From assembly GCA_964435605.1 (NCBI GenBank), contig CAYTAN010000001.1:3278-53508 (forward strand): a stretch of 50,231 nt of DNA, given 5' to 3'. Below the pieces are notes generated by a model. That model ran no database searches. It had not been told where the DNA came from and was given only the letters and a program-made list of their open reading frames with translations. The DNA is from an uncultured Dehalococcoidia bacterium (GTDB lineage Bacteria > Chloroflexota > Dehalococcoidia > Lucifugimonadales > UBA826). Of this stretch, positions 10,477 to 50,231 are shown one piece after another. Both the position numbers and the translations under genes were made by a program. The first letter of the stretch is position 1. Every line of letters starts with the position of its first letter.

Positions 10477-10515
10477 GTTTTCTCCCGTTTCCGATTATGT
10501 TTAGTGTGTCGTTGT

Positions 10516-12040: not shown

Positions 12041-12109
12041 CCAGCCAAATTATCGCTGTGGGTGCAGTTATTAGTGACGTTGAATAAGTGTTTTGGAGGA
12101 GATTCTGCT

Positions 12110-13084: not shown

Positions 13085-13127
13085 AATCTATAATAAAAAT
13101 GATTAGATACCTTTGTGAGGTGTACAA

Positions 13128-14156: not shown

Positions 14157-14170
14157 GAGAGTTTGTAATT

Positions 14171-26475: not shown

Positions 26476-27267
26476 CTATTTACCCTTAAATTTGGGAACC
26501 CTTCTTTCCACAAACGCTGACTGTCCTTCTTTGAAGTCTTCGCTGTCAAAGTTACTAAAAGGTAGTAGTGTTTCTTCCTCACTTAAGTTGAATAATGAGG
26601 GGTTGTTTACAGTGGTTGACAGGATTTTTTTATGTCGCATTTGTGATAATGGGGCAAGGGGTACCATTTCGGCGGCAAGTTTGGAAACAATATCATCTAA
26701 TTTATTTTCGGGCACTACCTGATTAACTAGGCCCATTTGCAGCGCTTCTGTAGCGTCAAATATACGACCGCTTAGTAATATATATGAAGCATTTCCAGAG
26801 CCTGCTAAATTGATTAATCTTTTCATCTCTCGATATCCAACTAAAATTCCAAGTTTGGCCACTGGAATGCCAAATTTGCTTTTTTCCGAAGCTATTCGGA
26901 TATCTGTTGCCATAGACAATTCACATCCTCCACCGACGCATATTCCATTTATCTTGGATATCGTAGGTACGGGCATATTTTCAATGGCATCAAGTGCTCC
27001 ATCAAACGCATCCGAATAGATTCGACCAGAACATGAATCTTGTCTGTTTTTCTCAAAATCTTTTATATCTGCTCCAGCAGAAAATGACTTCCCACCGGCT
27101 CCAGTAAACACTACTACTCTAATATCTTTGTCCGCACTTAAATTTGTGATTTCTTTTAGCAGTATTTTCCATCCCTCATAATCTATAGCATTATGTTTTT
27201 CAGGTTGGTTAAAAGTGATAGTGGCGATTCCTTCTTGCACATCTAAAAGAAATTTGTTGCTTTCCAT
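26476..27267 (-). CDS. enoyl-CoA hydratase/isomerase (crotonase) family protein
   Basis: 263 aa with FSAGADIKDF and CVGGGCELSMATD oxyanion-hole motifs. Confidence 0.9.
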   Translation of the reverse strand: MESNKFLLDVQEGIATITFNQPEKHNAIDYEGWKILLKEITNLSADKDIRVVVFTGAGGKSFSAGADIKDFEKNRQDSCSGRIYSDAFDGALDAIENMPVPTISKINGICVGGGCELSMATDIRIASEKSKFGIPVAKLGILVGYREMKRLINLAGSGNASYILLSGRIFDATEALQMGLVNQVVPENKLDDIVSKLAAEMVPLAPLSQMRHKKILSTTVNNPSLFNLSEEETLLPFSNFDSEDFKEGQSAFVERRVPKFKGK

Positions 27268-27293
27268 TTTTCATTCCTGACAAAGAATATTTG

Positions 27294-28061
27294 CTAATAT
27301 GATGTGTATCCGCCATCCACTGGGATAGATACTCCGGTTACGTAGTCAGATGCTTTGCTTGAAAGAAATACTGCGGTTCCTGCCAAATCATCTGGCTCTC
27401 CCCATCTCTCATGAGGTATTCGGGTAAGTATGTGATCATATCGGTCTCTAAAATTGTCTTTAAGACCCTGAGTGAGATCAGTGTGAATCCACCCAGGGAG
27501 TATGGAGTTTGCCTGAATGTTGTCTTTCGCCCATGATACAGCTAGGGTTTTCGTCATTTGCACTATTCCACCTTTGCTCGATGCATATGCAACAGCCCAA
27601 TCAAGCCCAAAAATGGATGTCATAGAGCCTATGTTGATTATTTTGCCACCACCATTTTTTTTCATATGCGGATAAACTTCTTTAGAACATATAAATGCGC
27701 CAGTGAGATTTATGTCCACTACCTTATTCCATTCAGTTAAAGTGTATTCTTCAGGCCGTTTTCTTATACCGATACCGGCATTATTTATTAATATATCGAC
27801 GTTGCCGAATTTTTCGACCGACCTAGATATCATGTTTTGAACAGATGATTCATCGGTCACTTCGACCTCGATGCCTTCGCAATTGGTCCCCAGACCCTTC
27901 AATTTTGAAATTGACTCATCAGTTTTAGTTTTATTCCTAGCAGCAATGATAATATTGGCGCCTGCCTCGGCAAGACCGACAGCCATACCGAAACCGATGC
28001 CACCGTTTCCACCAGTTATTAAGGCTGTTTTTCCTTTCAGGTCGAATAATTTAGACTCCAT
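27294..28061 (-). CDS. short-chain dehydrogenase/reductase (classical SDR)
   Basis: It has TGGNGGIGFG (TGxxxGxG), NNAG and YASSK (YxxxK) motifs. It is 255 aa long. Confidence 0.9.
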   Translation of the reverse strand: MESKLFDLKGKTALITGGNGGIGFGMAVGLAEAGANIIIAARNKTKTDESISKLKGLGTNCEGIEVEVTDESSVQNMISRSVEKFGNVDILINNAGIGIRKRPEEYTLTEWNKVVDINLTGAFICSKEVYPHMKKNGGGKIINIGSMTSIFGLDWAVAYASSKGGIVQMTKTLAVSWAKDNIQANSILPGWIHTDLTQGLKDNFRDRYDHILTRIPHERWGEPDDLAGTAVFLSSKASDYVTGVSIPVDGGYTSY

Positions 28062-28105
28062 ATTTGCTCCTTGATCGTAGTTGTGCTGTTAATTGATTAT
28101 ACCTT

Positions 28106-28453
28106 TCATCTAATCGGACCGTTTGGCCTGGAGGCATCAAGTAACGCCAAAGTTTTTATGCCTAGAGGCGACCCCTGTTTCCTTCTTTTGGCTAAAAGAT
28201 CGAGAGACAGGTTGGATAAGTTTGGTTTTTCATTTACATGTTTACCATTTTGTTGGGCGCAATTTCTTAATAACACTTTTGCAGGCCTGATCGTTTTGTA
28301 CACACACTGAAAGGCATAAGGGCAAATGTATGAGAAACATGTGGTTCTCTCTTGATGTGACCGATTTAGATCTGATGTTGTTTTGGTGAACGGGTTAGAA
28401 AGGTATTTTTCCAGACGTTCTGTAGAAGTGCCAATGTCATTATTTGAGTCCAT
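28106..28453 (-). CDS. hypothetical 115-aa protein (doubtful gene)
   Basis: This is the only ORF of 60 aa or more on the operon strand in a 530-bp gap. No RBS or family motif was recognised. It contains four Cys (C-x4-C-x5-C-x15-C). Confidence 0.3.
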   Translation of the reverse strand: MDSNNDIGTSTERLEKYLSNPFTKTTSDLNRSHQERTTCFSYICPYAFQCVYKTIRPAKVLLRNCAQQNGKHVNEKPNLSNLSLDLLAKRRKQGSPLGIKTLALLDASRPNGPIR

Positions 28454-28485
28454 TCAATAAATTTTCCTAATGTGACTTATTGAAT
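28452..28485. repeat. perfect 9-bp inverted repeat ATTCAATAA-N16-TTATTGAAT
   Basis: Read directly from the sequence. The left arm abuts and overlaps the putative start codon (28451-28453) of the 115-aa ORF. It could be an operator or an RNA hairpin. Confidence 0.6.
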
Positions 28486-28591
28486 AGCCATTTATCGAGC
28501 ATTGAGGGGCTCCACGCTAAGTTAAGTCTAAGGAGTGCCTTGCATGAAATCTAGTTGAATTTGGACTATTTCGATCGACTTTAAGTCAGGA

Positions 28592-29305
28592 TTATCGGAA
28601 TCGCTGTCCTTCAGTCTTGATAGATTGGAGTTTCCCGTTGTTTAATTCCTTTACATCATCCGCCATTGAAAGCAGAGTTGAGTCGTGAGTTACGGTAATT
28701 ATGGTTATTTTTTGCTCTGTTACCACTTCTCTAAACAAACCAAAAATTGACTTTGAGTTATTCGAGTCTAACTCTCCTGTAGGTTCATCGGCTAAGATTA
28801 GTGGAGGCTTTACCACAATTGCCCTTGCTATCGATACGCGTTTCTGCTCACCGCCAGATAACTCATATGGCCTATGGCTTTTTCTTTTTTCCAAACCTAC
28901 GATCTCTAACGCTTCCATGGTTAGTGATGATCTGTCCTTTACTGAGTAGCCGGCAATACGAAGAGGTAACTCAACATTTTCATATGCTGACAAAAGAGGT
29001 AGTAAACCGAAAGATTGAAATACAAAACCAACCGTATGTCTTCTCAACTGTGTAAGTTCAGCATCGCTCATATTTGACAGGTTTTGTCCGTTTATAGTGA
29101 CACTACCTTTTGTGGGCGCGTCTAGTCCCGCCAACATATTCAAAAATGTAGTTTTGCCAGATCCTGATCTTCCGACAATGGCTATAAAATTTCCTTCAGA
29201 CGCCTCAAAATCTATATGGTCAAGTATGGTAATCTCTCCATCTGAAGACGGGTATGTTTTGACTAAACCGGATGTTTTGAGCAAAGCAGGATTTTCTCTA
29301 TCCAT
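28592..29305 (-). CDS. ABC transporter ATP-binding protein (MacB/LolD/FtsE-like)
   Basis: It has Walker A GRSGSGKTT, the signature LSGGEQKR, Walker B ILADEPTGELD and an H-loop VTHD. It overlaps the upstream ATPase gene by 8 nt. Confidence 0.92.
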   Translation of the reverse strand: MDRENPALLKTSGLVKTYPSSDGEITILDHIDFEASEGNFIAIVGRSGSGKTTFLNMLAGLDAPTKGSVTINGQNLSNMSDAELTQLRRHTVGFVFQSFGLLPLLSAYENVELPLRIAGYSVKDRSSLTMEALEIVGLEKRKSHRPYELSGGEQKRVSIARAIVVKPPLILADEPTGELDSNNSKSIFGLFREVVTEQKITIITVTHDSTLLSMADDVKELNNGKLQSIKTEGQRFR

Positions 29306-30191
29306 CAGTAGTTTCTGGTCCGTATATTTTGAGATGTTTATCGAATAATTCTAATTTCGCCTTGCCTGTAATGTCCAAATCTTCTAGCATGCTGACTGGT
29401 ATTTGCAATCTTCCATTAGTGTCAATAAGGGTGAATTCATCCAATTGGCGGTTTTCGGATGCTTCGCCTGATATCCGACGGTACTCGTCGTTTCTTATGA
29501 TTTCTTTGGACGTTTTACCGTCCTGTATTAAAACTACCCTTCGTACTTTGTATGCTATCTGTGGGTCATGGGTGACTATAATGATTGTGGTCCCTAATTC
29601 GCTGTTAATTTTTCCAAACAGGTCTAAAATATCTGAAGCAGTTTGATCGTCTAATTCCCCTGTTGGTTCGTCAGCCAACAGGATTGAAGGCTGATTGGCT
29701 AGTCCAACTGCTATAGCAGTTCTCTGTTGCTCCCCTCCGGACAGGTTTTCTGGGGTCTGATGAGCTCGCTCTTTCAGCCCAACAAGATCTAGTAACTCTA
29801 ATGCCGCGTTTTTTATAGATTCTCCACTTCCTAGATTATTTAGCTTCATAGGTAGTTGGACGTTCTCGAAGGCAGTTAAATATGGAAACAAGTTACGACT
29901 AGTTTGTTGCCAGACAAATCCTATTTCAGATCTCCGGTAATATTCAGCCTCTTTATCGGAGAAATGGACAAGATCTCTTCCGGTCACTTCGATAGTTCCT
30001 GCAGATGGTTTATCGTACCCTGCTAATATATTTAGGAAGGTAGTTTTCCCACTTCCACTTGCCCCAACAATGGCTACAACTTCTCCCTGGTCTATAGTGA
30101 GGTCTAGACCTCGTAGAGCAACTACCTCAAGGTCTGCAACTTTAAATATTTTGAATATGTCGGTGCAAATTATGTGCGGTACTTGTGACAT
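29298..30191 (-). CDS. ABC transporter ATP-binding protein (MacB/LolD-like) with a C-terminal extension of about 70 aa containing an AbrB/SpoVT-like motif
   Basis: It has Walker A GASGSGKTT, LSGGEQQR, LLADEPTGELD and VTHD. Beyond the NBD, residues about 252-291 read EFTLIDTNGRLQIPVSMLEDLDITGKAKLELFDKHLKIY. Confidence 0.9.
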   Translation of the reverse strand: MSQVPHIICTDIFKIFKVADLEVVALRGLDLTIDQGEVVAIVGASGSGKTTFLNILAGYDKPSAGTIEVTGRDLVHFSDKEAEYYRRSEIGFVWQQTSRNLFPYLTAFENVQLPMKLNNLGSGESIKNAALELLDLVGLKERAHQTPENLSGGEQQRTAIAVGLANQPSILLADEPTGELDDQTASDILDLFGKINSELGTTIIIVTHDPQIAYKVRRVVLIQDGKTSKEIIRNDEYRRISGEASENRQLDEFTLIDTNGRLQIPVSMLEDLDITGKAKLELFDKHLKIYGPETTDG

Positions 30192-30274
30192 TTATTAGTC
30201 ATTCACCGGGATAAGACTATTGAATTTTAGTCCAGCGTAAATTTTTTGATTGACAGGTCTGTCTTGTTCCCAGC

Positions 30275-31399
30275 TCACAACCCGATCTTTTTGGCCACTT
30301 TTTCAAGATGAAAGTTAGAGTCACCAAACATTATTTCAGCAGCTTTTGCTCTCCTAGAATAGAGTTGCATGTTGTGTTCTTTTGTAAAACCGATAGCACC
30401 ATGGGATTGATGCCCTAGCGCGCATACTCGCCTATAAGCCTCACTTACCCAAGCTTTGGCCATCGCGACTTCTCTTTCTGCTGGAAGCCCTTCCGACAAT
30501 CTCCAGGCGGCCTGGTAGGTGATAAATTTGGACCCCTCGACATCTGTTGCCATGTTGGCACAATGATGCTGTATTGCTTGAAAACTTCCGATTGGTCTAC
30601 CGAATTGAGTTCTCTGCTTGGCGTATTCTACGGTCATGTCCAAAACGCTCTGCCCACCTCCTGACATCTCAGCGCATTTACCGATCGCTCCCCACTGCAA
30701 TACTTTTTCAATTGTGGCCCAGCCTTCATTTGCTTTTCCTAGCAAAGAGTTTTCGTCAACAGAAACATTTTCGAATATTACTTCCGACTGCTTGTCTGAT
30801 GCTATGGTTTTCAAGTCTGTAAGACTAATTCCGTCAGCATTGGACGGTACGATGAACAAACTAATATCCTGTTCGTTTTCGCCTGTTCTAGCTGCCACTA
30901 CTATGAAATCTGACACATTAGCGTTTGTAACGAATAATTTAGTGCCGCTAAGAACGTACTGGTTCCCAGATTTTGTAGCCGTTAGCTCGATACCCGCAGG
31001 ATCCCATCTTGCAGAAGGTTCCGTAAGTGCTAGAGTGGTGATAATCTGACCTTCCGCTATTCTTGGCAAGTACTCTGATTTCTGCTCCTCTGTGCCGGCA
31101 TCCATTATGGACATGCCACCAAGAAGGACGGTAGAAAAATATGGACCTGGCAACATGTATCTGCCCATTTCTTCAAGTAATATTGTTAGATCCTGGAACT
31201 GTAGCTCTACTCCACCGTATTTTTCAGGGATAATTAACCCCAACCAACCCTGCTCGGCTATTTTTGACCATATTTCTGGGGTATAGCCTCGTTCATCTTC
31301 TTCCATCTCTCTGACATATGTGTCTGTGCATTCAGTCTCTAAGAATTCTTGAGCACTATTCTTAAGCATCTGTTGAGTTTCATTTAGTCCGAGGTCCAT
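30275..31399 (-). CDS. acyl-CoA dehydrogenase family protein lacking both canonical catalytic-base positions
   Basis: 374 aa with the ACAD fold pattern (YGG, middle beta domain, FGRPIGSFQAIQ). The C-terminal IMFGDSNF replaces (I)YEGT, and VLQWGAIG replaces the LDxER helix-G site. Confidence 0.88.
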   Translation of the reverse strand: MDLGLNETQQMLKNSAQEFLETECTDTYVREMEEDERGYTPEIWSKIAEQGWLGLIIPEKYGGVELQFQDLTILLEEMGRYMLPGPYFSTVLLGGMSIMDAGTEEQKSEYLPRIAEGQIITTLALTEPSARWDPAGIELTATKSGNQYVLSGTKLFVTNANVSDFIVVAARTGENEQDISLFIVPSNADGISLTDLKTIASDKQSEVIFENVSVDENSLLGKANEGWATIEKVLQWGAIGKCAEMSGGGQSVLDMTVEYAKQRTQFGRPIGSFQAIQHHCANMATDVEGSKFITYQAAWRLSEGLPAEREVAMAKAWVSEAYRRVCALGHQSHGAIGFTKEHNMQLYSRRAKAAEIMFGDSNFHLEKVAKKIGL

Positions 31400-31441
31400 T
31401 GATGTCGTCTCCTAATGTGGTGGGTTCTTCCCGTTTACTTG

Positions 31442-32617
31442 CTATCCTCGTGGCAATCCAAGGCCACGTGTAGCGATCACGTTTCTCTGTATTTCTGATG
31501 TTCCGGCCGCAACCATCCCGCCAAAAGAGCGCAGGTATGCATTTTCTATACGACCTCCCAATGGAGCCCATTTCGAGCCGGGGTCAAGCTGCCCAAATGG
31601 GCCCATAATTTTTACCCCCAGCCCGTATAACCGATTGAGCATTTCAGTTCCGTATGCTTTAGTTATAGATGCTTCTTTATTGGGTATCATGTCCTGGCTT
31701 TGCATCCATGCGACGTTGTAGCACATTAATCTAACAGCCTCAATTTGTACCGCCAGTTCCGATAGTTCATTTTTAATTACTGGATCGTCAGCCAGTAGCC
31801 GGCCATTTTTTTTGTTCTCCTTGCAGAAATTAACCAAATCCTCAAGGACTCTTTTTGCTCTTGCAGGGCGGTCAACCCCAGAACGTTCAAAGTCCAATAG
31901 GGCCGCTCCGACATACCATCCTCTGTCCTGCTCTCCTACCAGATTCTTTTTAGGTACCCTGACATTATCAAATGTAACCAGGCCGCGATATGCGTCCCAC
32001 ATCATGGGTATCTTTTCTACAGTAACCCCGTCTGTGCCGTCCAACTCTGTTAGCAAAAAGCTGATTCCGCGATGTTTAGGCGCATCTGGATCTGTTCGAG
32101 CCAACATGAACATCCAGTCTGAGTCTGCGTGGGCCGAATTCCAAATTTTTGAACCTGTCACCACAAAGTCGTCTCCGTCTTCCACGGCTCTAGTTTGCAA
32201 AGACGCTAAGTCCGAACCAGAGTCTGGTTCAGAATATCCCTGAGACCAGTTGATCTCAGCTCCAGCTATCTTAGGTAGAAATTCTCTTTTTTGCTCGTCA
32301 GTACCGTAAAGCATGAGAATGGGACCTACCATACGGATCCCTGCGTCACCGGCAGGTATACCCCTGTAGGCCATCTCTTCGTTAAAAACGACTTGCCTCA
32401 TATGGCTCGCTGCCTGGCCACCATATTCCTCAGGCCATGCCATGGTCAGCCACCCTTTCTCTCCCAGTTGTTTTTTGAACTGACGGACCAGAATGGAATC
32501 TTTCTCATCTTCAGGGTCTAGGTCTTCCTGAGACCATTTCCAAGGTAATTCTTTGTCTACAAAATTTACAATTTCTGATCGAAAGTCCTCATCTACAGAT
32601 TCGAATCTAAAATCCAT
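31442..32617 (-). CDS. acyl-CoA dehydrogenase (IVD/LCAD-type catalytic Glu position)
   Basis: 391 aa with WPEEYGGQ, CQ/SQGYSEPxSGSD, LLDFERSG and AAGTSEIQRNVIATRGLGLPRG. Confidence 0.9.
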   Translation of the reverse strand: MDFRFESVDEDFRSEIVNFVDKELPWKWSQEDLDPEDEKDSILVRQFKKQLGEKGWLTMAWPEEYGGQAASHMRQVVFNEEMAYRGIPAGDAGIRMVGPILMLYGTDEQKREFLPKIAGAEINWSQGYSEPDSGSDLASLQTRAVEDGDDFVVTGSKIWNSAHADSDWMFMLARTDPDAPKHRGISFLLTELDGTDGVTVEKIPMMWDAYRGLVTFDNVRVPKKNLVGEQDRGWYVGAALLDFERSGVDRPARAKRVLEDLVNFCKENKKNGRLLADDPVIKNELSELAVQIEAVRLMCYNVAWMQSQDMIPNKEASITKAYGTEMLNRLYGLGVKIMGPFGQLDPGSKWAPLGGRIENAYLRSFGGMVAAGTSEIQRNVIATRGLGLPRG

Positions 32618-32644
32618 ACTTATCTATCCTTAAATTTGTGACTA

Positions 32645-33817
32645 CTATCCTCTGGGTAATCCAAGCCCTCTTGTAGCGATTATATTCCTCTGGATTTCTG
32701 ACGTTCCGGCTGCGATAGTTTCCGAGACGTTGCTAAGGTACATATGATTTATCCGACCTTCTAATGCGGCGTGTTTTGAGCCTGGAGCTAATTGCCCATG
32801 TAACCCCAGCATTTGCATACCCACCTGGCTGATATGCTGTTGTAACTCTGTACCAAAAACCTTTCCCATAGATGATTCCTTGTTCGGTACGAGACCCTCA
32901 CTTTGCATCCATGCTATGTTATAAGAAATTAACCTGCTTACATCGACCTCGATAGCTAGATCGGCCAGCCTGTTTCTGACAACTTCATTATCAGCAAGCA
33001 ATTTGCCGTTGAGGCTATTTGATTTGGAATAGTCTGTAAGTTCTTCTAAAGTTTTACGGGCTCCTGCAGAATAATCTACACCTGATCTTTCAAAATCCAA
33101 TAATGTTGCCCCAACATACCATCCTCTGTCCTGTTCCCCAACCAAGTTTTTTTTGGGAACTCTGACATTGTCGAATGTAATCATATTAAAGTTATGGTCA
33201 CCAGCCATGTTTACGATTGGGTTGACCGTTAGGCCTGGGGTATTCATGTCGCAAAGTAGGAAACTTATACCTCTGTGTTTTGGGGCATCTGGATCTGTTC
33301 TCGTGAGAACCATGATGTGATCCGCTCTATGGGCACCGGATGTCCATATCTTTGTACCATTTATTACAAAGTCGTCCCCGTCTTCCACGGCCCTAGTTTG
33401 AAGTGAAGCTAGGTCTGAACCAGATTCAGGTTCCGAGTAACCTTGACACCACTGTACTTCCCCTTTTGATACCGGAGGTAAGAATTCTCTTTTTTGTTCC
33501 TCTGTTCCATGTATCATCAAGGTGGGAGCCATCATTCGAGTGCCAAAAATGTCTCTGCCCGGAGCCCTGTTATATGACATTTCCTCAGCAAATATGACCT
33601 GCATCATATGTGATGCGTTTTGGCCCCCATACTCTTCGGGCCATGCCATAGTCAGCCAACCCTTTTGGGATAGTTTCTGTCGCATGTCAAGAGTAAACTT
33701 CCAGTTTTCGTCAGGATCTTCTCTTTGAAAATCAGAAACATTTGCTAATTCATTCGTTAACCAGGAGGACAGTTCAGACCGAAAAGTTTCCTCTTCATCA
33801 GTAAATTTAAAATCCAT
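32645..33817 (-). CDS. acyl-CoA dehydrogenase (tandem paralog of 31442-32617)
   Basis: 390 aa with the same motif set (WPEEYGGQ, LLDFERSG, AAGTSEIQRNIIATRGLGLPRG). Long runs of DNA-level similarity to the neighbouring gene are visible. Confidence 0.9.
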   Translation of the reverse strand: MDFKFTDEEETFRSELSSWLTNELANVSDFQREDPDENWKFTLDMRQKLSQKGWLTMAWPEEYGGQNASHMMQVIFAEEMSYNRAPGRDIFGTRMMAPTLMIHGTEEQKREFLPPVSKGEVQWCQGYSEPESGSDLASLQTRAVEDGDDFVINGTKIWTSGAHRADHIMVLTRTDPDAPKHRGISFLLCDMNTPGLTVNPIVNMAGDHNFNMITFDNVRVPKKNLVGEQDRGWYVGATLLDFERSGVDYSAGARKTLEELTDYSKSNSLNGKLLADNEVVRNRLADLAIEVDVSRLISYNIAWMQSEGLVPNKESSMGKVFGTELQQHISQVGMQMLGLHGQLAPGSKHAALEGRINHMYLSNVSETIAAGTSEIQRNIIATRGLGLPRG

Positions 33818-41447: not shown

Positions 41448-42503
41448 TTGAAATTCGGTATATTTTGGCAGGTTCCCGGATATGAAGGATCGTCCGTTCC
41501 GGATAGGCATTGGGAAACAGTTGATGAAATTGAGTTGGCAGATGATCTAGGGTTCACACAGGCATGGCTGGCTGAGTCCCCATTCTACCCTACAAGGCCT
41601 ATGTCCCAGCCATTATTGGTTGCCAGTGCGGCAGCCCAACGGACTAATAATATTAGGTTTGGCACATTGGCGGCCCAGATTCCACTCCATCACCCTGTTG
41701 ATTATGCTTCTACCATTGCAACTTGCGATATTTTAACGAATGGGAGATTTGATTTATGTGTAGGAGGTAGATTTGGCAGTAAGGCGAGCCAGGTAGTAGG
41801 AATGTCAGAGGACATCGATAATTCACAAAGCCGAGAAATGGTGTCTGAATACGTTGACATACTTAGGCAGTCTTGGACTAATGAAAGATTGACCTATAAA
41901 GGTAAATATTGGAATTTTGATGATGTACCAGTCATACCTAAGCCAATGCAGAGACCATATCCCTCTCTTTTGATGGCTGCCAACAGTGATTCCTCTTTTG
42001 AGTTCGCTGCTTCTCAAGGCATGGGTGTTATAGGTACCATGCTCAGCCAGCCTCTGGAGAATTTGAAGATGCACAGCGATACTTTTCACAAGGTTAAAAA
42101 TAGATTGAAATCAAACGAGGGGAAACAACCGTTTCACATTGCCATTTCTTTTTTTGTTGCGGAAACTAGAGAAAAGGCCCAAAAGATTATGAGGGAGAAC
42201 TGGAGAGATTCTGACGTAATATCTGATGGCCCTCCCGTTCATTCTTCTGCCATAGGAGGGGGGAGACATGATTTCTCTTCAGGGGCTGGTGGTTGGGCTA
42301 CTTGGAATTTTCAGTCCGCACTTGAGCACTGCATATACGATTCTCCCGAAGGATGCATTGAGAGATTGGCAAGAATAATGGCTACGGTAGATAACGTAGA
42401 CCAGATAATTTTGGAATTTAATCGAAGAGGTAGGATTTCTAGTGAGGTGGTCAAAAAATCAATGAAACTATTCGGAGATAAAGTTTTGCCATCGCTCGCC
42501 TAA
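41448..42503 (+). CDS. LLM-class (luciferase-like) flavin-dependent oxidoreductase
   Basis: 351 aa with a TTG start preceded by GAGG. It begins with the typical MKFGIFW...GF..AWLAE N-terminus. Confidence 0.85.
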   Translation: MKFGIFWQVPGYEGSSVPDRHWETVDEIELADDLGFTQAWLAESPFYPTRPMSQPLLVASAAAQRTNNIRFGTLAAQIPLHHPVDYASTIATCDILTNGRFDLCVGGRFGSKASQVVGMSEDIDNSQSREMVSEYVDILRQSWTNERLTYKGKYWNFDDVPVIPKPMQRPYPSLLMAANSDSSFEFAASQGMGVIGTMLSQPLENLKMHSDTFHKVKNRLKSNEGKQPFHIAISFFVAETREKAQKIMRENWRDSDVISDGPPVHSSAIGGGRHDFSSGAGGWATWNFQSALEHCIYDSPEGCIERLARIMATVDNVDQIILEFNRRGRISSEVVKKSMKLFGDKVLPSLA

Positions 42504-43643: not shown

Positions 43644-44855
43644 TTAACCTACAACCTCCTTAAAATACCTAAGGTAATTTATGCCTAACAGTTTTTTTAG
43701 TTCATCTTCATTGAAACCTTTCTCTGCTAGTTTTACGGTAATATTTGGCCAGTCACCGAAGTTGGAATATCCTTCTATTCTGTAATCTGGGGTAAGCCTA
43801 TGCTCCGGGCGAAAGCCACCCCAGTTAAATTCATCTGGATGCTTTTTGAAATATTCGATTTGTCCTGGCATGCTTTCAGGAAATTCATGATCATATATGA
43901 GGCCAGTTTCAGGTCCATTAGCACAAATATCAGTACCTATCCCCACATGGTCAATGCCCATTATGTTCACAAGGTGGGTTACATGGTTTGCGAAATCATC
44001 TAGCGTAGCTATACTGCCGTTGTTCTGTATAAAACCAGGTACAATAACTACCCCAAAGAATCCCCCTTTTTCGGCGATCGCCTTTGCTAAATCGTCGTCT
44101 TTTCCTCTATCGTGAAAACAGATTGAATTACTTGAGGAATGAGTCACAATTATTGGAGCTGAGGATATTTCAAGGGCATCCCAGCCAACTTGTTGGCTAC
44201 AATGACTAACATCAACCGCCATATTCATCTCATTTAGTTTTTGGACTACAGTTTGACCAAAATATGTCAATCCGGTTTTATACCGTTCCGTACACCCGTC
44301 ACCAACTAGGTTACGCAAATTATAAGTAAGTTGGACTACCCTAAGGCCCAAATTGTAAAAATAGTCTATTTTTGAAAGGTCTGTACCGAATGGCAATGTG
44401 TCCTGGAAGTCGAGAATTAGGCCGTGTTTGCCCGAACTATAGACAGTCTCGATATCTTCAGCTTTGAGGATGAGTTGTAACTCGCCTTGCAGGGCATCAA
44501 TGTAACCTCTGGCCTGAGCTATTCCCTCTGTTGCACTCTCAAAAGCCTTCTCGATTTCTATACCAGCACTGTATGTTCCACTGGCTACACTAACTCCTGA
44601 ACGGTGCCAGAGGGATAAATATTGCTCCCTAGCTGATTCAGAATCGCGAATTTCATCCATGGCAATTTTGGACAATTGATTGGATGCTTGAGCCCTGGTG
44701 TATCCGGCCTTATCCATATCCAGAAGGTCTAGTTTCATTCTTTCTGTAAATAGAAATCCTGAAGTCGCAGGAGGTTGCTTACTGTCAATTACAAGGGCTT
44801 CTTGATGTAGCTGTAAAGCCTCTTGGTCTGATAGATGTCGTACTTGTCTTTTCAA
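43644..44855 (-). CDS. membrane-dipeptidase-like (M19 family) metallopeptidase
   Basis: 403 aa with a TTG start preceded by GGAG. It has ALVIDS, MAVDVSHCS, IVTHSSS and HVGIGTD motifs typical of renal-dipeptidase family enzymes. Confidence 0.8.
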   Translation of the reverse strand: MKRQVRHLSDQEALQLHQEALVIDSKQPPATSGFLFTERMKLDLLDMDKAGYTRAQASNQLSKIAMDEIRDSESAREQYLSLWHRSGVSVASGTYSAGIEIEKAFESATEGIAQARGYIDALQGELQLILKAEDIETVYSSGKHGLILDFQDTLPFGTDLSKIDYFYNLGLRVVQLTYNLRNLVGDGCTERYKTGLTYFGQTVVQKLNEMNMAVDVSHCSQQVGWDALEISSAPIIVTHSSSNSICFHDRGKDDDLAKAIAEKGGFFGVVIVPGFIQNNGSIATLDDFANHVTHLVNIMGIDHVGIGTDICANGPETGLIYDHEFPESMPGQIEYFKKHPDEFNWGGFRPEHRLTPDYRIEGYSNFGDWPNITVKLAEKGFNEDELKKLLGINYLRYFKEVVG

Positions 44856-44953
44856 GAAACAGGCTCCTTTGAACTTACTGAGTATTGATTGGTTGGATGT
44901 TAACAGAAGAATTTACGATAGTATGTTTTCGTGTTCCGTTATAGCTGTATAGT

Positions 44954-44982
44954 TTGACTAAACGTTAAGTTGTGTAAATAAT
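44954..44982 (+). promoter_or_regulatory. putative promoter of the lyase/CoA-transferase module
   Basis: TTGACT (44954-44959), a 17-nt spacer, then AATAAT (44977-44982). A 6-bp inverted repeat AAGTTG-N10-CAACTT overlaps the -10 region. Confidence 0.35.
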
Positions 44983-45025
44983 CAACTTCATACGATCGAA
45001 GGTACCTTTTTTGAAGGATGTTTAA

Positions 45026-45967
45026 TTGACTACAGTTTCAGGTTTTGAAGATTCCCATTTAGATAGGTTGAAGGCTGTTAGAAGGTCTAAATTAGAGATT
45101 GGGACTAGTTCAGAATTTACTTTTGAAGATGCTATTGTTAGTGGTGCGGACACAATAGTACTGTGTGATTCGTATAATCAGACAAGCACTTCGGTGAATC
45201 AAAAAACTGAAGTTCTTGAGCTTGTTGAAGTGATTAAGAGTAAGAATCTGGATGTGCTGATTAGGCTGTCAGATTTGTCTGATCAATCTTTAGAACTTTG
45301 GTTAATCAGGGGTATATCAGGGGTCGCTATAGAAGTGGAGGATGCCAATGAAGTTGTCGATATTTCTAATCGTATCTCAAAAATAGAAATATCAAAGGAT
45401 ATACCTCAAAGTACCTTCGAATTGGATTTGGTTTTCGGAACGGCCAGTTCAATCATTGACTGCTTTGATATAGCACGCTCTAGCTCTAGAATAGCATCCT
45501 TAAATTTGGATGAGCCAAAATTATACAAAGAGCTAGGTATCCCGTTTACAGGTGAAGAAGACGCTCTGGCTTTCTCTAGAGGACGACTTATTGTTGCAGC
45601 GCGGGCAGCCAAAATTCAGTCACATGGCCTCGCATTTATTAAAGATCATGAAAACAGGTGGTCATTTGATGAACAAGTAGCTCTTTCAAGAAAAATGGGA
45701 TTTTCTGGGGCATATTGTAAGTCTTTACATGAGATTCCTTATCTAAATAAAGGATTTGCTCCTAGTGAGTCTGAATATGAGAGGGCTTTAAAGGTTATTC
45801 AAACTATGGATAAAGCTTTCGAGATGGGATTAGGTGCCGTCACCCTTGGCGGGAGTGAAATGATAGATATAGCTATGGTGAGGCATGCTGAAAATACGAT
45901 TTTCAGACACACAGCCGTACAGGCAAAAGAGGCTCAATTCAGACCTACTGAGGAGTCAAATGATTGA
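45026..45967 (+). CDS. CitE/HpcH-HpaI-like TIM-barrel protein, divergent paralog 1 (catalytic signature not conserved)
   Basis: 313 aa with a TTG start preceded by GAAGGA. It is colinear with CitE-like lyases in spacing, but the motifs read IVLCDSYN, LIRLSD, AIEVEDANEV, LVFGTASS and LNLDEPKLYKELG. The C-terminal lid region (GAVTLGGSEMIDIAMVRHAE) resembles CitE. Confidence 0.6.
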   Translation: MTTVSGFEDSHLDRLKAVRRSKLEIGTSSEFTFEDAIVSGADTIVLCDSYNQTSTSVNQKTEVLELVEVIKSKNLDVLIRLSDLSDQSLELWLIRGISGVAIEVEDANEVVDISNRISKIEISKDIPQSTFELDLVFGTASSIIDCFDIARSSSRIASLNLDEPKLYKELGIPFTGEEDALAFSRGRLIVAARAAKIQSHGLAFIKDHENRWSFDEQVALSRKMGFSGAYCKSLHEIPYLNKGFAPSESEYERALKVIQTMDKAFEMGLGAVTLGGSEMIDIAMVRHAENTIFRHTAVQAKEAQFRPTEESND

Positions 45968-46728
45968 TGAATAAACATGTTAGGTCACTATTGTTAGTTG
46001 CGGCAGGGGATGAAAACCTGGATCAAAAATTGAGTTGGGATCCTGATGCTGTCGTTTTGGACTTGACCGACTTGATACATCCTTCCTACTTTGATCAAGC
46101 AAAGGAACTTATCCCAAATCAAATATCTCTATTAGGAAGCAGAGAGATTTTTTCTTTGGTTCGGATGAGTATGGAGCAATTATCTGATGATTTGGGTGCG
46201 TTTGTTGATGCAGGTGTTGATGCACTGATGTTAAGTGGGTTAGAGGAATCTTCTGATATTGAAAGTGTAGAACAAAAATTAACTGCTTTGGAATCGGAAA
46301 GAGGAATTGAAGTAGGTTCCACTAAATTGATTCCATATTTGTCTTCAATGTCAGGTTTATTTAATGCTTCTTCAATAATAAAGGATAGTTCCAGAATAAT
46401 TGCTATTACTATCGGGGTAGGTGACATGGCTTTTGACTTATCTGAATCAGAAGATAAGGAACTTTTTTTCTATACGGGCCCAAATCCAAGGATCTCGTCT
46501 CCTGAATTTCTAATTACACGTACTACCATCATGGCTCAGTGTAAAAAAGGAATTGATGTTTTAGGTGTACTGGGTACTACTATTGCCCCGGGCTTCGCCA
46601 ACAGCGATCATTTGATCGTTACAGCGAACAGGTCTGCGAGGTTGGGCATTAAAGGGGCGCTTACCCTTCACGAGGAAGGTTTAGTTGCTTGCCGGCAAGC
46701 TTTTAATGTATTTAGCAAAGAAAGGTAA
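45967..46728 (+). CDS. CitE/HpcH-HpaI-like TIM-barrel protein, divergent paralog 2 (truncated, catalytic signature partly lost)
   Basis: The ATG overlaps the upstream TGA (TGATG). The motifs are VVLDLTDL, LVRMS, LMLSGLEES, LIPYLSSMSG and IGVGDMAFDLS, with CitE-like spacing. It lacks the C-terminal lid domain. Confidence 0.6.
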   Translation: MNKHVRSLLLVAAGDENLDQKLSWDPDAVVLDLTDLIHPSYFDQAKELIPNQISLLGSREIFSLVRMSMEQLSDDLGAFVDAGVDALMLSGLEESSDIESVEQKLTALESERGIEVGSTKLIPYLSSMSGLFNASSIIKDSSRIIAITIGVGDMAFDLSESEDKELFFYTGPNPRISSPEFLITRTTIMAQCKKGIDVLGVLGTTIAPGFANSDHLIVTANRSARLGIKGALTLHEEGLVACRQAFNVFSKER

Positions 46729-47694
46729 ATGATGGAAATTAGGATTGAACGCTCCAGTTTGATAATGCCTGTTAATGTGTCACGATTTGTTGAAAAGGCC
46801 TGGACTAGAGGAGTGGAACAAATCACTTTGGATTTAGAGGATTCTGTAGCTCCAAATCAGAAAGAAGATGCTAGAAAGCTGGTTAAAGAAGCTATAGGAA
46901 TTGCAGCCAGAGGGGGAGCTTCAATATCGGTCCGAATTAATAAAGATAATATTGAAAAAGATTTAGAGGCGTCCATATGGCCAGGTCTTTATGGCATATT
47001 GATGACCAAAGTTGAATCAGTTGAGGAAGTTCAGTTGGCGGATAAGTATATAGGTGATCTTGAGCGAGAAAGAGGTATAGGGAAAGGAACTATTAAGATA
47101 AAGCCGTTGATAGAATCTGCGATCGGAGTTTGGAATGCCTTTTCAATCGCGACTGCGAGTGAGCGTATATGTCAATTTGGCGATGTTGCCGCAGGTGACA
47201 CAACAGCAGATTTAGGAATTGAAATGGCTGGTGAAGTTGATCAGCTTTTTTATTGCCGTGGTGAGGTTGATTTGATAGGGAGATCATTAGAAATGGGTGG
47301 AGAAGGCCCCTGGCAGCCTGTAGAAGGTTCGATGTTTCAATATGGAGATCCTGAACCGGTACTAAGAAAAGCTAGGGAAAACCGGCGTAGAGGAGTGCAT
47401 GGTTCATTTGGGATTCATCCATCAGTAGTACAACCAAACAATGAAGGGCTTACCCCCACCAGAAATGAAGTGGAGGAAGCAAATAACCTTATCGATTCGT
47501 ATAATGCGGCCTGGGAAAGAGGAGAATCATATGCGGTGTTTAACGGCAGGATGATATTTGGGGACAACGCACATTGGGCAAAAGAATATATTCACTATGC
47601 CGAAGCATGTTGGGCCAAGGATAAGGAGAAAGCTGAAGTGATTAGTAGTTTGAAGCGTGAAGAATCCGAATCGAATAGGGAGATTGATGGTTAG
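46729..47694 (+). CDS. CitE-like acyl-CoA lyase (citryl/malyl/citramalyl-CoA lyase beta-subunit family), canonical motifs
   Basis: The ATG lies immediately after the upstream TAA. The motifs are LDLEDSV, SVRINK, LMTKVES, PLIESAIGV, AAGDTTADLG and FGIHPSVV. Confidence 0.85.
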   Translation: MMEIRIERSSLIMPVNVSRFVEKAWTRGVEQITLDLEDSVAPNQKEDARKLVKEAIGIAARGGASISVRINKDNIEKDLEASIWPGLYGILMTKVESVEEVQLADKYIGDLERERGIGKGTIKIKPLIESAIGVWNAFSIATASERICQFGDVAAGDTTADLGIEMAGEVDQLFYCRGEVDLIGRSLEMGGEGPWQPVEGSMFQYGDPEPVLRKARENRRRGVHGSFGIHPSVVQPNNEGLTPTRNEVEEANNLIDSYNAAWERGESYAVFNGRMIFGDNAHWAKEYIHYAEACWAKDKEKAEVISSLKREESESNREIDG

Positions 47695-48871
47695 AGGTAT
47701 TCTAGATGATGTTACGGTAGTTGAACTCGCTCAAGATGTTGCCGGACCTTACGGGTCAAAGTTGTTAGCAGACCAGGGTGCGAATGTTATTAAAGTAGAA
47801 CCTATAAGTGGAGATACTTCGAGACAGTGGGGCCCATACCCTGATGATTCTCCTCATTTAGAACGAAGCCTGAGTTACGCCTATTACAATACTAATAAGA
47901 AAAGTGTCACTTTAAATATAGATAGTGACAAGGGTAAGTCTTTATTGAGGAGATTGGTTGTAGAGGCAGATATTTTGATCGAGGATATAGCTCCTTCAAG
48001 AAAATCTGTTTATGGTCTTGAAGATTTATCCGTTGTAAAACCGGATCTGATCCACGTATCTGTAACACCCTTTGGAGTAACAGGCCCTTATCGCGACTAT
48101 GCTGGTGCTGAAATAATTTATCAGGCTATGGGTGGATTTATGCACCTAAGCGGTGAGCCGGATAGAGGGCCTCTACAGATTGCTCTGAATCAAGGCCAGG
48201 TTATGGCAGGTAGAAATGTAGCTTTATCTACTATGGCTGCAATATATATGCAAACAGGCCAATTTGTGGATGTCTCCATCATGGAATCCGTCGCTGTTCA
48301 GCCTCCGTTTCACATATTAACCTACACGCACACTGGAATTATTTCTGGTCGGGGCTTGGGGGCGGGCGGAATTGATATATTTGGCGGTGATTATCTGGAG
48401 ACAAAAGATGGCCATATTTGCATGACCACAGAAGGACGTAGATCATGGGAGGATTTGGCACTTTTGCTTGAAATACCTGAATTATCTTTAGATCAATTTG
48501 CTGATCCTCAGGATAGAGAGAAACATAGAAAAGCACTTGAAGAATTGGTACTTCCTGAATTGAAGGAGAAAGATACTAAAGAGCTGTTTCATAAGGCAAT
48601 GAGAGAAGGTTTTGTGTTTGGTATGGTACAGAGTCCCCAAGATCTGCTGGAATGTGAACAACTTGAAGAGCGAGGGGCATGGTCCGAAATAGAACACTCG
48701 GAATTAGGGAAATTGAAATATCCAAATCCAGGTTTCAACATGAGTGCAATAGCGGCAGAACCTGACCGTCCAGCTCCTTTGCTTGGGGAACATAATTCAT
48801 CTATCTACACTTCAATGCTGCAAATATCTCCTGATGAGTTAAAAGAATTGAAATCAGAAGGGGTCGTATAG
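47687..48871 (+). CDS. family III CoA-transferase (CaiB/BaiF/Frc family)
   Basis: MVRGILDDVTVVELAQDVAGPYGSKLLADQGANVIKVEP is the typical N-terminus. I prefer ATG 47687, which overlaps the upstream stop by 8 nt, over the upstream GTG at 47657. Confidence 0.88.
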   Translation: MVRGILDDVTVVELAQDVAGPYGSKLLADQGANVIKVEPISGDTSRQWGPYPDDSPHLERSLSYAYYNTNKKSVTLNIDSDKGKSLLRRLVVEADILIEDIAPSRKSVYGLEDLSVVKPDLIHVSVTPFGVTGPYRDYAGAEIIYQAMGGFMHLSGEPDRGPLQIALNQGQVMAGRNVALSTMAAIYMQTGQFVDVSIMESVAVQPPFHILTYTHTGIISGRGLGAGGIDIFGGDYLETKDGHICMTTEGRRSWEDLALLLEIPELSLDQFADPQDREKHRKALEELVLPELKEKDTKELFHKAMREGFVFGMVQSPQDLLECEQLEERGAWSEIEHSELGKLKYPNPGFNMSAIAAEPDRPAPLLGEHNSSIYTSMLQISPDELKELKSEGVV

Positions 48872-50231
48872 ATGGTTTCAACAAACATTATTAAGAACGC
48901 GACACTATCTGGCGTAAGAGTTTTATGCATTGAAGATCTTATAGCCTTACCGTGGGGGACTATGTACTTGGCCGATTTGGGAGCCGATGTTATCAGAGCT
49001 GAGTCGCATACACGCCTTAGAGCTCGCGCTTGGGGCCCGTTTCCTAATGGTGTGGCAGATCCAGAGAAGTGGTGGAATCAGGGTGGTAGCCATGGACTCT
49101 ACTATCGGAACAAAAAAAGCCTTACATTAGACCTGACAAAACCTGAAGGTATTCAGCTACTGAAAGAATTAGTTAAGGTAACCGATATTGTCGCCGAAAA
49201 TAGTCGGCCGGGTGTTATGGATAGACTTGGTATTGGTTATGACACCTTGAAGCAAATCAAACCAGATCTAATCATGATAGGAAGTTCCGGATTTGGACAA
49301 ACAGGCGATTGGAATAGTTATGGTGCTGTGGCCCGCATTATCGATGGCATTTGCGGTATGTCTTATACAACTGGCTACAAAGACGATGGCCCTGTAAGAG
49401 CGAATCCTTCATACATGGATATAACTACAGGATGGAATATGGTGTTGTGTTCATTGTTGGCTCTTCATCATCGTCGTAAAACCGGTGAAGGTCAGTATAT
49501 AGACCTGTCCATGTATGAAACAGGAACGACTTGTATTGGTCCTGCTCTATTGGATGAACAGGTTAACCACCGGAAGATAAATAGGATTGGGAATGGGCAT
49601 TCCAGGTTAGCGCCCCATGGTTGTTACCCATGTGTTGGGAAAGATAGATGGGTGGTAATAGCGATTGAAACTGACATTCAGTGGAATAGTTTTAAGGAAG
49701 CTATGGGCAGTCCGAATTGGGCTGATGATGATCGGTTTGCTTCTGTTGCGGGACGGTTAAAGCATTCAGATAAACTTGATGATCTGATATCAAAGTGGAC
49801 GAAAGATAAAGCAGATAAGGAATTGACTGAGACACTGCAGTTTCAAGGGATACCTTGTTCTTCGGTTTACAATGCACGAGATTTATTGACTGATGACCAT
49901 CTGAAATCTCGTAAATTCTTTGAACCATTAGAAAGGATTCAAGAGTCAGATGTAGGAGTAAAGCCATACGTTGGTAGATCGTTTAAGATGTCAAATACTC
50001 CAGCTATGAAACAAAGTGTTGCTACGTTGGGAGAGCACAACAGAGACATATTAGTCGATTTATTGGGTATATCGGATCAGGAAATAGATTCCTTGCATGA
50101 AGATCAAATTATAGGTTGGAAACCAATTGGGCCAGAGGCTGTAACTCCAGGCGGAATTTCCCGCGTTATGGTTGGTAATGATGCTGTGTCAGACCCTGAC
50201 TTTGAGAGAGTTAATGAACTTCATGCTGATC
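48872..50231 (+). CDS. family III CoA-transferase (CaiB/BaiF/Frc family), 3' end outside window
   Basis: This ORF is not in the ORF track because it has no stop. The ATG lies 1 nt after the upstream TAG. My manual translation is open to the window end: MVSTNIIKNATLSGVRVLCIEDLIALPWGTMYLADLGADVIRAES...GHSRLAPHGCYPCVGKDRWVVIA. Confidence 0.85.
   Translation, partial: MVSTNIIKNATLSGVRVLCIEDLIALPWGTMYLADLGADVIRAESHTRLRARAWGPFPNGVADPEKWWNQGGSHGLYYRNKKSLTLDLTKPEGIQLLKELVKVTDIVAENSRPGVMDRLGIGYDTLKQIKPDLIMIGSSGFGQTGDWNSYGAVARIIDGICGMSYTTGYKDDGPVRANPSYMDITTGWNMVLCSLLALHHRRKTGEGQYIDLSMYETGTTCIGPALLDEQVNHRKINRIGNGHSRLAPHGCYPCVGKDRWVVIAIETDIQWNSFKEAMGSPNWADDDRFASVAGRLKHSDKLDDLISKWTKDKADKELTETLQFQGIPCSSVYNARDLLTDDHLKSRKFFEPLERIQESDVGVKPYVGRSFKMSNTPAMKQSVATLGEHNRDILVDLLGISDQEIDSLHEDQIIGWKPIGPEAVTPGGISRVMVGNDAVSDPDFERVNELHAD

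Follow-up and report, generated by a model that had tools for sequence, protein, structure and literature searches.

A five-gene operon from Dehalococcoidia predicted to encode a composite-site CitE-like lyase and a two-paralog family III CoA-transferase

The window, a stretch of 50,231 nucleotides from an uncultured Dehalococcoidia bacterium (contig CAYTAN010000001.1, positions 3,278 to 53,508), ends in five co-directional open reading frames (ORF1 to ORF5, 45026-50231), here called Ly1, Ly2, Ly3, CoAT-A, and CoAT-B. The first three match the CitE/HpcH family of lyases, and the last two match the family III coenzyme A (CoA) transferases. The original prediction, made from the DNA letters, described a five-gene module joined by stop/start junctions, and direct reading of the sequence bears out all four of these: TGATG at 45965-45969 (Ly1/Ly2, a 1-nt overlap of stop TGA and start ATG), TAA-ATG at 46726-46731 (Ly2/Ly3, abutting), ATGGTTAG at 47687-47694 (Ly3/CoAT-A, an 8-nt overlap), and TAG-ATG at 48869-48874 (CoAT-A/CoAT-B, abutting). 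A purine-rich Shine-Dalgarno-like site lies upstream of each of the five starts, and the divergent spacer in front of the operon has the predicted length of 170 bp (Table 1). Such tight coupling is by itself ordinary for operons; three adjacent CitE-like genes are not.

The boundaries of the operon can be fixed with the help of related loci, which carry L numbers throughout. The TTG start of ORF1 is kept at the same position in its orthologues. ORF4 is assigned the ATG at 47687, not the upstream GTG at 47657 of the ORF listing, because this start gives the 394-aa gene found in L013 and L014 and corresponds to the first start codon of the orthologous ORF in L004. ORF5 is completed by L013, a contig that matches the final 10 kb of the window at 98.7% identity, where it encodes 456 aa, ends in ...NELHADPQE and a stop 3 codons past the window, and is followed by no gene for 850 bp, the nearest lying on the opposite strand. 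L004, from a metagenome-assembled genome (MAG) of Chloroflexota SP343 whose ORF1 is 56% identical, has exactly five genes, then unrelated DNA and tRNAs. A module running on downstream, as had been expected, is therefore rejected, ORF5 being the last gene in both L013 and L004. Promoter-like sites of the kind listed for the spacer show no enrichment over shuffles (7 observed vs 13.8 expected).

Table 1. Features of the operon region, and sets of CitE-like genes at related loci.
Feature	Length	Coordinates or gene order	Strand	Basis or remark
M19 dipeptidase gene		43644-44855	minus	divergent neighbour of operon
Divergent spacer, M19 dipeptidase gene (minus) to Ly1	170 bp	44856-45025	.	sequence read
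Promoter-like TTGACT-17-AATAAT		44954-44982		consensus match only
GAAGGA Shine-Dalgarno-like site before Ly1 TTG start		in 170-bp spacer
Ly1	313 aa, TTG start	45026-45967	+	PF03328, AlphaFold2 model, 4L9Y alignment
Ly2	253 aa	45967-46728	+	PF03328, alignments
Ly3	321 aa	46729-47694	+	PF03328, PDB matches, site table
CoAT-A	394 aa	47687-48871	+	PF02515, PDB alignments
CoAT-B	453 of 456 aa in window	48872-50231	+	PF02515; full length and stop from L013
L005	259 + 324 + 304 aa CitE-like	order 2-3-1		760-aa double CoA-transferase ~3 kb downstream
L006	298 + 261 + 320 aa CitE-like	order as in window
L007	301 + 299 + 316 aa, then CoA_transf_3 399 + 462 aa			Chloroflexi MAG, ~31% ORF1 identity
L008	302 + 461 + 297 aa CitE-like
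L009	305 + 246 aa CitE-like			contig ends past second gene
L010/L011	298 + 508 + 321 aa CitE-like
L012; L016	320 + 314 + 306; 316 + 323 + 307 aa			related second trio family, by ADP-forming acyl-CoA synthetase

Family membership is clear for all five proteins. The Pfam model PF03328 (HpcH_HpaI) matches ORF1, ORF2, and ORF3 with E-values of 7e-8, 1e-12, and 2e-21 (32.4, 48.0, and 77.0 bits, all above the gathering score of 25), while PF02515 (CoA_transf_3) matches ORF4 and ORF5 with E-values of 3e-80 and 6e-96 (270.6 and 322.3 bits, both over profile positions 1-366 of 366). A placement of ORF1 or ORF2 in an unrelated fold family, which would have spoken against the original prediction, is not what is seen: both belong to the CitE/HpcH fold family by Pfam, and Ly1 does so by Foldseek as well. 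More specific assignment is another matter. Compared with the equivalog families for malyl-CoA lyase, citramalyl-CoA lyase, and citrate lyase beta (NCBIfam NF041626, NF038242, TIGR01588), none of the three lyase paralogs reaches a cut-off. The CitE model TIGR01588 is the top NCBIfam match for all three, at 63-114 bits against a cut-off of 443; the best scores of Ly3 against the three cut-offs are 113.5 vs 443.4, 71.6 vs 375, and 41.3 vs 500, and those of Ly1 and Ly2 are lower.

The residues to look for in such proteins have been defined on the malyl-CoA lyase (MCL) of R. sphaeroides (MCLR), whose numbering is used here (Zarzycki & Kerfeld, PMC3832036). Glu141 and Asp168 are the Mg2+ ligands, Glu44 and Asp45 hold Mg-bound waters, and both pairs are described as "absolutely conserved"; Arg76 and Asp299 form the catalytic pair, conserved across the CitE-like superfamily, and conservation of the whole set is reported to extend over the superfamily and to the malate synthases as well (PMC3832036). 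Asp299 is carried by a beta-hairpin in the C-terminal lid, and the lid covers the active site of the neighbouring subunit. Because each lid closes its neighbour's site and supplies Asp299, the trimer is a prerequisite for activity, and CitE-like enzymes, which include lyases, thioesterases, and synthases, are described as homo-oligomers built from trimers, MCLs being dimers of trimers (PMC3832036). Sites were mapped by phmmer and MAFFT onto the structure 4L9Y, after verification of the numbering offset.

The three window proteins divide these residues among them. Ly3, with best PDB matches to the malyl-CoA lyases 5UGR and 4L9Y, has the complete barrel set (E37, D38, R69, E129, and D157, for E44, D45, R76, E141, and D168), but has lost the lid Asp, whose position is taken by F277 (47557-47559). 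Ly1 keeps an intact helix/hairpin/helix lid with D281 (45866-45868) at the Asp299 position, while its barrel shows S49 for E44, no Asp aligned with D45, G138 for E141, and K165 for D168; R80 falls at the Arg76 position, where orthologues have K or W, and is not conserved. Ly2 breaks off where the barrel would give way to the lid, at about MCLR residue 270, and has no lid at all; T34 replaces E44 and S126 replaces the Mg ligand E141, with D35, R66, and D153 retained at the D45, R76, and D168 positions. Arg76 and lid Asp299 thus occur together in conserved form in no single window protein (Ly1 has D281 but a variable Arg, Ly2 has R66 but no lid, Ly3 has R69 but F277), and the Glu141/Asp168/Glu44/Asp45 set is complete in Ly3 only. 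The original description of three lyase paralogs stands as to family; as to catalysis, only Ly3 (ORF3) appears to have a competent barrel, and Ly1 and Ly2 look like pseudoenzyme-like subunits, not competent lyases. It would appear that a homotrimer of any one of them would lack a complete active site, and that the Ly3 barrel and the Ly1 lid could together provide Arg76 and Asp299. The losses in Ly1 and Ly3 are complementary because the lid completes the neighbour's active site in solved CitE-like trimers.

Structure prediction supports the description of Ly1. Its AlphaFold2 (AF2) model (predicted local distance difference test, pLDDT, 81.8; predicted template modelling score, pTM, 0.80) contains both barrel and lid, the lid elements being helix 248-266, strands 271-274 and 278-281, and helix 282-305, and the top Foldseek match, over the full length, is the malyl-CoA lyase 4l9z_A with a template modelling (TM) score of 0.73. 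The Ly2 model, built from a 5-sequence alignment, is poor (pLDDT 60.6, with the C-terminal 100 residues below 50); it is confident for residues 7-150 only, where a beta/alpha pattern is seen. A word-indexed homolog search with Ly2 returned close relatives only.

Far from being unique to one genome, the trio recurs in every independent locus examined that has an ORF1-like gene and is long enough for three genes. There are seven of these, the window clade (L001, L002, L013, L014), L004, L005, L006, L007, L008, and L010/L011, with the gene order permuted once and the GC content of trio loci ranging from 0.40 to 0.68. The more remote members come from an exhaustive HMMER search with a Ly1 profile, which finds distant Ly1-like proteins (26-32% identity) with degenerate barrels and the lid Asp kept; every fetched context of a Ly1-like gene has adjacent CitE-like genes. 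The survey for the same 3+2 arrangement that had been proposed finds it exactly in L007. Named relatives come from Chloroflexi, Dehalococcoidia, and SAR202, plus one Burkholderiales. A scan of GTDB genomes with the Ly1 alignment gives one locus only, L004; a metagenome scan with the Ly1-type alignment gave 84 pattern matches and no confirmed relative, and Ly3 had no exact match in the contig index. In a neighbour-joining tree the proteins form three orthologous clades with one member per locus, and the best cross-locus match of each trio protein is its own type; the triplication is therefore ancient, and the set has been co-inherited. As a control, the 80 best CitE-like loci of a metagenome collection were inspected: 78 have a single CitE-like gene, one is the L016 trio, and one is a pair at a contig end. 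A family III CoA-transferase adjoins the CitE-like gene in 23 of the 78 single-gene loci.

The division of residues is inherited along with the genes. Ly1-type proteins keep the lid Asp in 9/9 lineages, with degenerate barrels, and a lid motif, G.GA....G.M.D.A, remains conserved among Ly1 orthologues while the barrel degenerates. Ly2-type proteins across lineages have lost E141, keep D168 (8/8), and have no lid Asp. Ly3-type proteins keep the E, D, R, E, D set at 9/9 loci and show 51 invariant residues over 7 lineages; at the lid Asp position the window and L004 have F, and L006 has N. The wider Ly3-type family comprises 1683 clusters at E <= 1e-30, and some of its members, such as P0306, P0308, and P0377, lie on Mb-scale contigs. 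The 120 closest Ly3-type proteins keep the barrel set in 119 cases and the lid Asp in 106, with replacement of the latter (by F, N, S, R, T, or a gap) in 13. Loss of a residue described as "conserved in the entire superfamily" would be unexpected unless a partner supplies the Asp.

Ratios of nonsynonymous to synonymous substitution (dN/dS), computed for the window against L002 at 80-97% amino-acid identity, are 0.17 for Ly1, 0.13 for Ly2, 0.07 for Ly3, 0.04 for CoAT-A, and 0.03 for the neighbouring M19 gene as a control. Ly1 and Ly2 evolve faster than Ly3 yet are clearly constrained, and with values of 0.13-0.17 the idea that they are decaying duplicates or pseudogenes is rejected. Natural fusions tell a related story. 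P0094 (645 aa) and P0109 (638 aa) each join a degenerate to a canonical CitE domain; in the N-terminal half Arg76 and the E44/D45 pair are gone and the Mg ligands remain, and the C-terminal half is fully canonical. Their residue patterns point to a related two-part ("duo") architecture beside the trios.

Two variants of the trio deserve separate description. In L008 (8923-10308) and L010 (8923-10449) the Ly2-type subunit carries an N-terminal extension of ~170 aa, unmatched in Pfam, in which a long run of hydrophobic residues resembles a transmembrane segment; in L010 the C-terminal tail is also proline-rich and repetitive. To judge by the extension, these organisms may anchor the lyase complex in a membrane. 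A second trio family, in L012 (28-4000) and L016 (3882-8880), has the residue patterns EYRE/QDD, EDREDD, and G/E..GSD and lies directly downstream of an ADP-forming acyl-CoA synthetase gene (CoA_binding + Succ_CoA_lig + ATP-grasp_5). Its second subunit still has a lid with Asp, and by its sequence this family looks like an evolutionary intermediate. Near the L016 trio are genes for a TRAP DctM transporter and a 3-hydroxyisobutyrate-dehydrogenase-like protein, as well as a fourth HpcH_HpaI gene (10219-11013).

The transferase pair shows a division of its own. The family III catalytic Asp, whose position we take to be that of Frc Asp169, was located by alignment to 4ED9 ("AFADIFTG") and 9FN0. 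CoAT-B keeps it as D183 (49418-49420); CoAT-A has Q171 (48197-48199) at the position, and the Asp is absent. The same A/B split is seen in L004 (Q/D), L007 (E/D), and the fusion halves of L005 (Y/D), and also in 9FN0, the solved heteromeric benzylsuccinate CoA-transferase, where chain B has Asp and chain A has Tyr. The best PDB match of CoAT-B is 9fn0_B (E 1.5e-55), and CoAT-A is closer to chain A than to chain B. CoAT-A would accordingly appear to be a non-catalytic paralog, with CoAT-B alone retaining the catalytic Asp. The 760-aa fusion of L005, which joins A to B in the same order as the separate genes, is Rosetta-stone evidence for an A/B heterodimer. The nearest NCBIfam transferase models (succinyl-CoA:mesaconate and succinate-glutarate) score 155-200 bits against cut-offs of 700-750. 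Since the closest characterised relatives all use succinyl-CoA and dicarboxylates, a succinyl-CoA:dicarboxylate transferase is the likely identity.

Activating enzymes beside the trios vary, being CoA-transferases or an ADP-forming acyl-CoA synthetase, and these partners fit the original idea of a module that activates an acid and then cleaves it. The other neighbours differ by lineage (VOC/glyoxalase + DAO, RidA + cyclase, SBP_bac_5, aminotransferase, TRAP transporter), and no common pathway beyond CoA activation emerged from them.

Taken together, the evidence makes it probable, though well short of certain, that the five genes form one operon for two enzymes, each of which combines catalytic with pseudo-catalytic paralogs: a heterodimeric transferase and an obligate heterotrimeric lyase. 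CoAT-A and CoAT-B would form a BbsEF-like heterodimer, CoAT-B catalytic and CoAT-A its non-catalytic partner, that transfers CoA from a thioester donor (probably succinyl-CoA) to a carboxylic acid, probably a hydroxy-dicarboxylic one. The lyase would be a Ly1:Ly2:Ly3 heterotrimer, which may pair into a dimer of trimers. Each heterotrimer would have one composite site, to which the Ly3 barrel gives the Mg2+ site (E37, D38, E129, D157) and R69, and the domain-swapped C-terminal lid of Ly1 gives the catalytic D281. The sole productive ring order would place the Ly1 lid on the Ly3 barrel and the Ly3 lid on the metal-less Ly2 barrel; the lidless Ly2 would lie beside the dead Ly1 barrel, which would stay uncovered. 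The lid Asp of Ly3 would be free to drift because it would face the metal-less barrel of Ly2. The enzyme would split its acyl-CoA by a retro-aldol/Claisen reaction, releasing a short acyl-CoA together with either a 2-oxo acid or an aldehyde acid. The earlier suggestion that transferase and lyase may both be hetero-oligomeric gains from the complementary losses in the lyase, the BbsEF-like Asp/non-Asp split, and the A-B fusion; the physical association itself, like the ring order, the direction of the reaction, and the substrate, we infer from sequence.

Several points weigh against the heterotrimer and its pairing with the transferase. The role of Ly2 is not accounted for. The site mapping for Ly1 and Ly2 comes from alignments at 20-30% identity, on which phmmer and MAFFT agree. 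The substrate is a guess, because all equivalog scores fall far under their cut-offs. Several trios (L006, L008, L010) have no CoA-transferase in the available sequence, so the link between lyase and transferase is frequent, not universal. The lid Asp is kept in 4/7 aligned type-3 proteins (3/5 independent lineages), so that homotrimers of these could be active and dependence on Ly1 may be lineage-specific; in the window protein, D279, two residues past F277 on the same hairpin strand, might replace the lid Asp. Ly3 could then be the sole enzyme, a homotrimer using D279 or another base, with Ly1 and Ly2 in separate, non-catalytic roles outside the trimer, as ligand-binding or regulatory proteins, as chaperones, or as scaffolds that dock the transferase. 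The intact barrel in Ly3 alone would agree with this, as would the lid Asp in 106/120 Ly3-type proteins, which makes homotrimers feasible in many lineages. Such an arrangement is nonetheless unlikely: D279 is not conserved even in close orthologues (F-D-Q-N in L002, F-K-H-N in L004), the lid Asp has disappeared on two independent occasions (in the window/L004 clade and in L006), and only in proteins with a Ly1 partner, the retention of the Ly1 lid motif and Asp in 9/9 lineages while the barrel decays is hard to explain without catalytic use, and degenerate-canonical fusions exist.

Complementarity as such would also be served by a hetero-oligomer of other stoichiometry or topology, such as a Ly3-Ly1 core (2:1, or a 3:3 hexamer) with peripheral Ly2, or a citrate-lyase-like supercomplex that includes both transferase subunits and channels the acyl-CoA. 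The assembly of MCLs as dimers of trimers (PMC3832036) and the ~170-aa hydrophobic Ly2-type extension of L008 and L010, suggestive of an anchor or adaptor, speak for such forms, as does classical citrate lyase, which unites transferase and CitE lyase in one complex. The occurrence of several trios with no adjacent transferase speaks against the supercomplex, and because gene content and clades that run one-to-one fit 1:1:1 most simply, we regard these variants as quite unlikely. A bolder version can be imagined, a single asymmetric five-protein machine in which Ly1:Ly2:Ly3 has one active site and its two pseudo-subunits present a unique surface on which CoAT-A/B docks, so that the acyl-CoA passes straight from transferase to lyase. 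Family III transferases and CitE paralogs would in this way have given rise anew to a complex like citrate lyase, one that works on free CoA esters, is widespread in SAR202 and other Chloroflexota, and cleaves a class of hydroxy-acids from recalcitrant dissolved organic matter; the whole of it is a doubtful speculation. Finally, all three lyase paralogs match PF03328 and are under purifying selection, and CitE-like enzymes are described as trimer-based homo-oligomers with lyase, thioesterase, and synthase activities (PMC3832036), which would fit three separate homo-oligomeric enzymes of one catabolic pathway, each with its own substrate or reaction (e.g. lyase, thioesterase, or a metal-independent activity). 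That literal view of three lyase paralogs is very improbable, since Ly1 is without both Mg ligands and the E44/D45 pair, Ly2 is without E141, E44, and the whole lid (its homotrimer would be lidless), and strict co-inheritance of one gene of each type is not expected for independent enzymes.

Other parts of the window contain further genes of note. On the minus strand, the block 26476-33817 is a second case of tandem paralogs and includes three adjacent acyl-CoA dehydrogenase genes (30275-31399, 31442-32617, 32645-33817), two ABC ATPase genes (28592-30191), an SDR gene (27294-28061), and an enoyl-CoA hydratase gene (26476-27267). A complete 2-oxoacid dehydrogenase E1alpha/E1beta/E2 set lies at 12062-15325 on the plus strand; after it, on the minus strand, come genes for a rhomboid protein, an amidase, and an Orn/DAP/Arg decarboxylase. 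Nothing evident connects this ordinary chromosomal neighbourhood to the operon. A luciferase-like (LLM/F420-type) oxidoreductase of 351 aa, at 41448-42503 on the plus strand, is intact in the window and in L013/L014; in L001 (6424-7478) it is called as 309 + 41 aa, probably through a frameshift or assembly error. Outside the window, ~5.7 kb downstream of the operon in L013 (20916-20942 and beyond), another HpcH_HpaI gene lies on the opposite strand and adjoins FIST-domain, luciferase-like monooxygenase, and acyl-CoA dehydrogenase genes.

Existing annotation obscures the trio. The Prokaryotic Genome Annotation Pipeline (PGAP) labels Ly1-type and even Ly3-type proteins "hypothetical protein" in several Chloroflexi, Dehalococcoidia, and SAR202 MAGs (in L007, MBI4234580.1 and its neighbour), and IMG labels all three "citrate lyase subunit beta"; both sets of labels hide the three-type structure. 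If the heterotrimer is real, it would explain such calls on two, and sometimes all three, of the genes, and it would represent a new quaternary design for the CitE-like family, an anciently triplicated, conserved heterotrimer and a clean natural case of a subfunctionalised inter-subunit active site. It would also warn against scoring the trio as three lyases when the metabolism of SAR202 and other Chloroflexota, organisms abundant in the deep ocean, is reconstructed. No precedent for a heteromeric or heterotrimeric CitE-like lyase was found in searches of the open-access literature, in agreement with the original prediction. There is a probable earlier sighting of the genes: three consecutive genes of a SAR202 single-cell genome (IMG genes 2521610711-13 of SAG AAA007-M09) have been reported as "subunits" of a trifunctional lyase (Landry et al. 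2017), and these are probably the same trio, listed there without analysis.

Among known systems, the CitE-like lyases (Mcl1 4L9Y, M. extorquens 5UGR, Chloroflexus MCL 4L80, human CLYBL 5VXC, and M. tuberculosis Rv2498c) share the triosephosphate isomerase (TIM) barrel and helix/hairpin/helix lid, and the Ly3 barrel has the same Mg2+/Arg set as theirs, which a neighbour's lid completes. Together with citryl- and HMG-CoA lyases, they are described as trimer-based homo-oligomers, a homotrimer having three identical sites and a homohexamer six, whereas the trio predicts one site per trimer. The lyase is a superfamily member outside the characterised equivalog families; it would act in the manner of a malyl- or citramalyl-CoA lyase and differs in its predicted quaternary design. 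The transferase looks like an addition to the two-paralog family III enzymes represented by BbsEF and SmtAB. BbsEF, the succinyl-CoA:(R)-benzylsuccinate CoA-transferase (PDB 9FN0), is likewise encoded by two adjacent family III paralogs with Asp in the B-type only; identity to it is only ~25-35%, and the operon has a CitE-like trio in place of bbs beta-oxidation genes. Within the same phylum, in the Chloroflexus 3-hydroxypropionate bi-cycle, the two-paralog family III transferase SmtAB reportedly works with a CitE-like lyase, the malyl-CoA lyase. Landry et al. 2017 assigned their three SAR202 genes to this lyase. Chloroflexus MCL is a homohexamer, unlike the predicted heterotrimer, and the window operon has no hydratases or other bi-cycle genes in or beside it. 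Citrate lyase CitDEF likewise combines transferase activity with a CitE-type lyase; the window transferases are of family III, and identity with CitDEF was rejected, there being no CitD acyl carrier protein or CitF alpha and scores far below cut-off. A parallel for the subunit design comes from hetero-oligomeric metabolic enzymes with a pseudoenzyme subunit, such as the short-chain dehydrogenase BbsCD (cited in PMC10818641). As in these, a dead paralog would be kept under purifying selection as the obligatory partner of an active one; unlike in these, the part predicted for Ly1 goes beyond structure to the donation of a catalytic residue in trans, and the operon has a third paralog, which lacks a lid.

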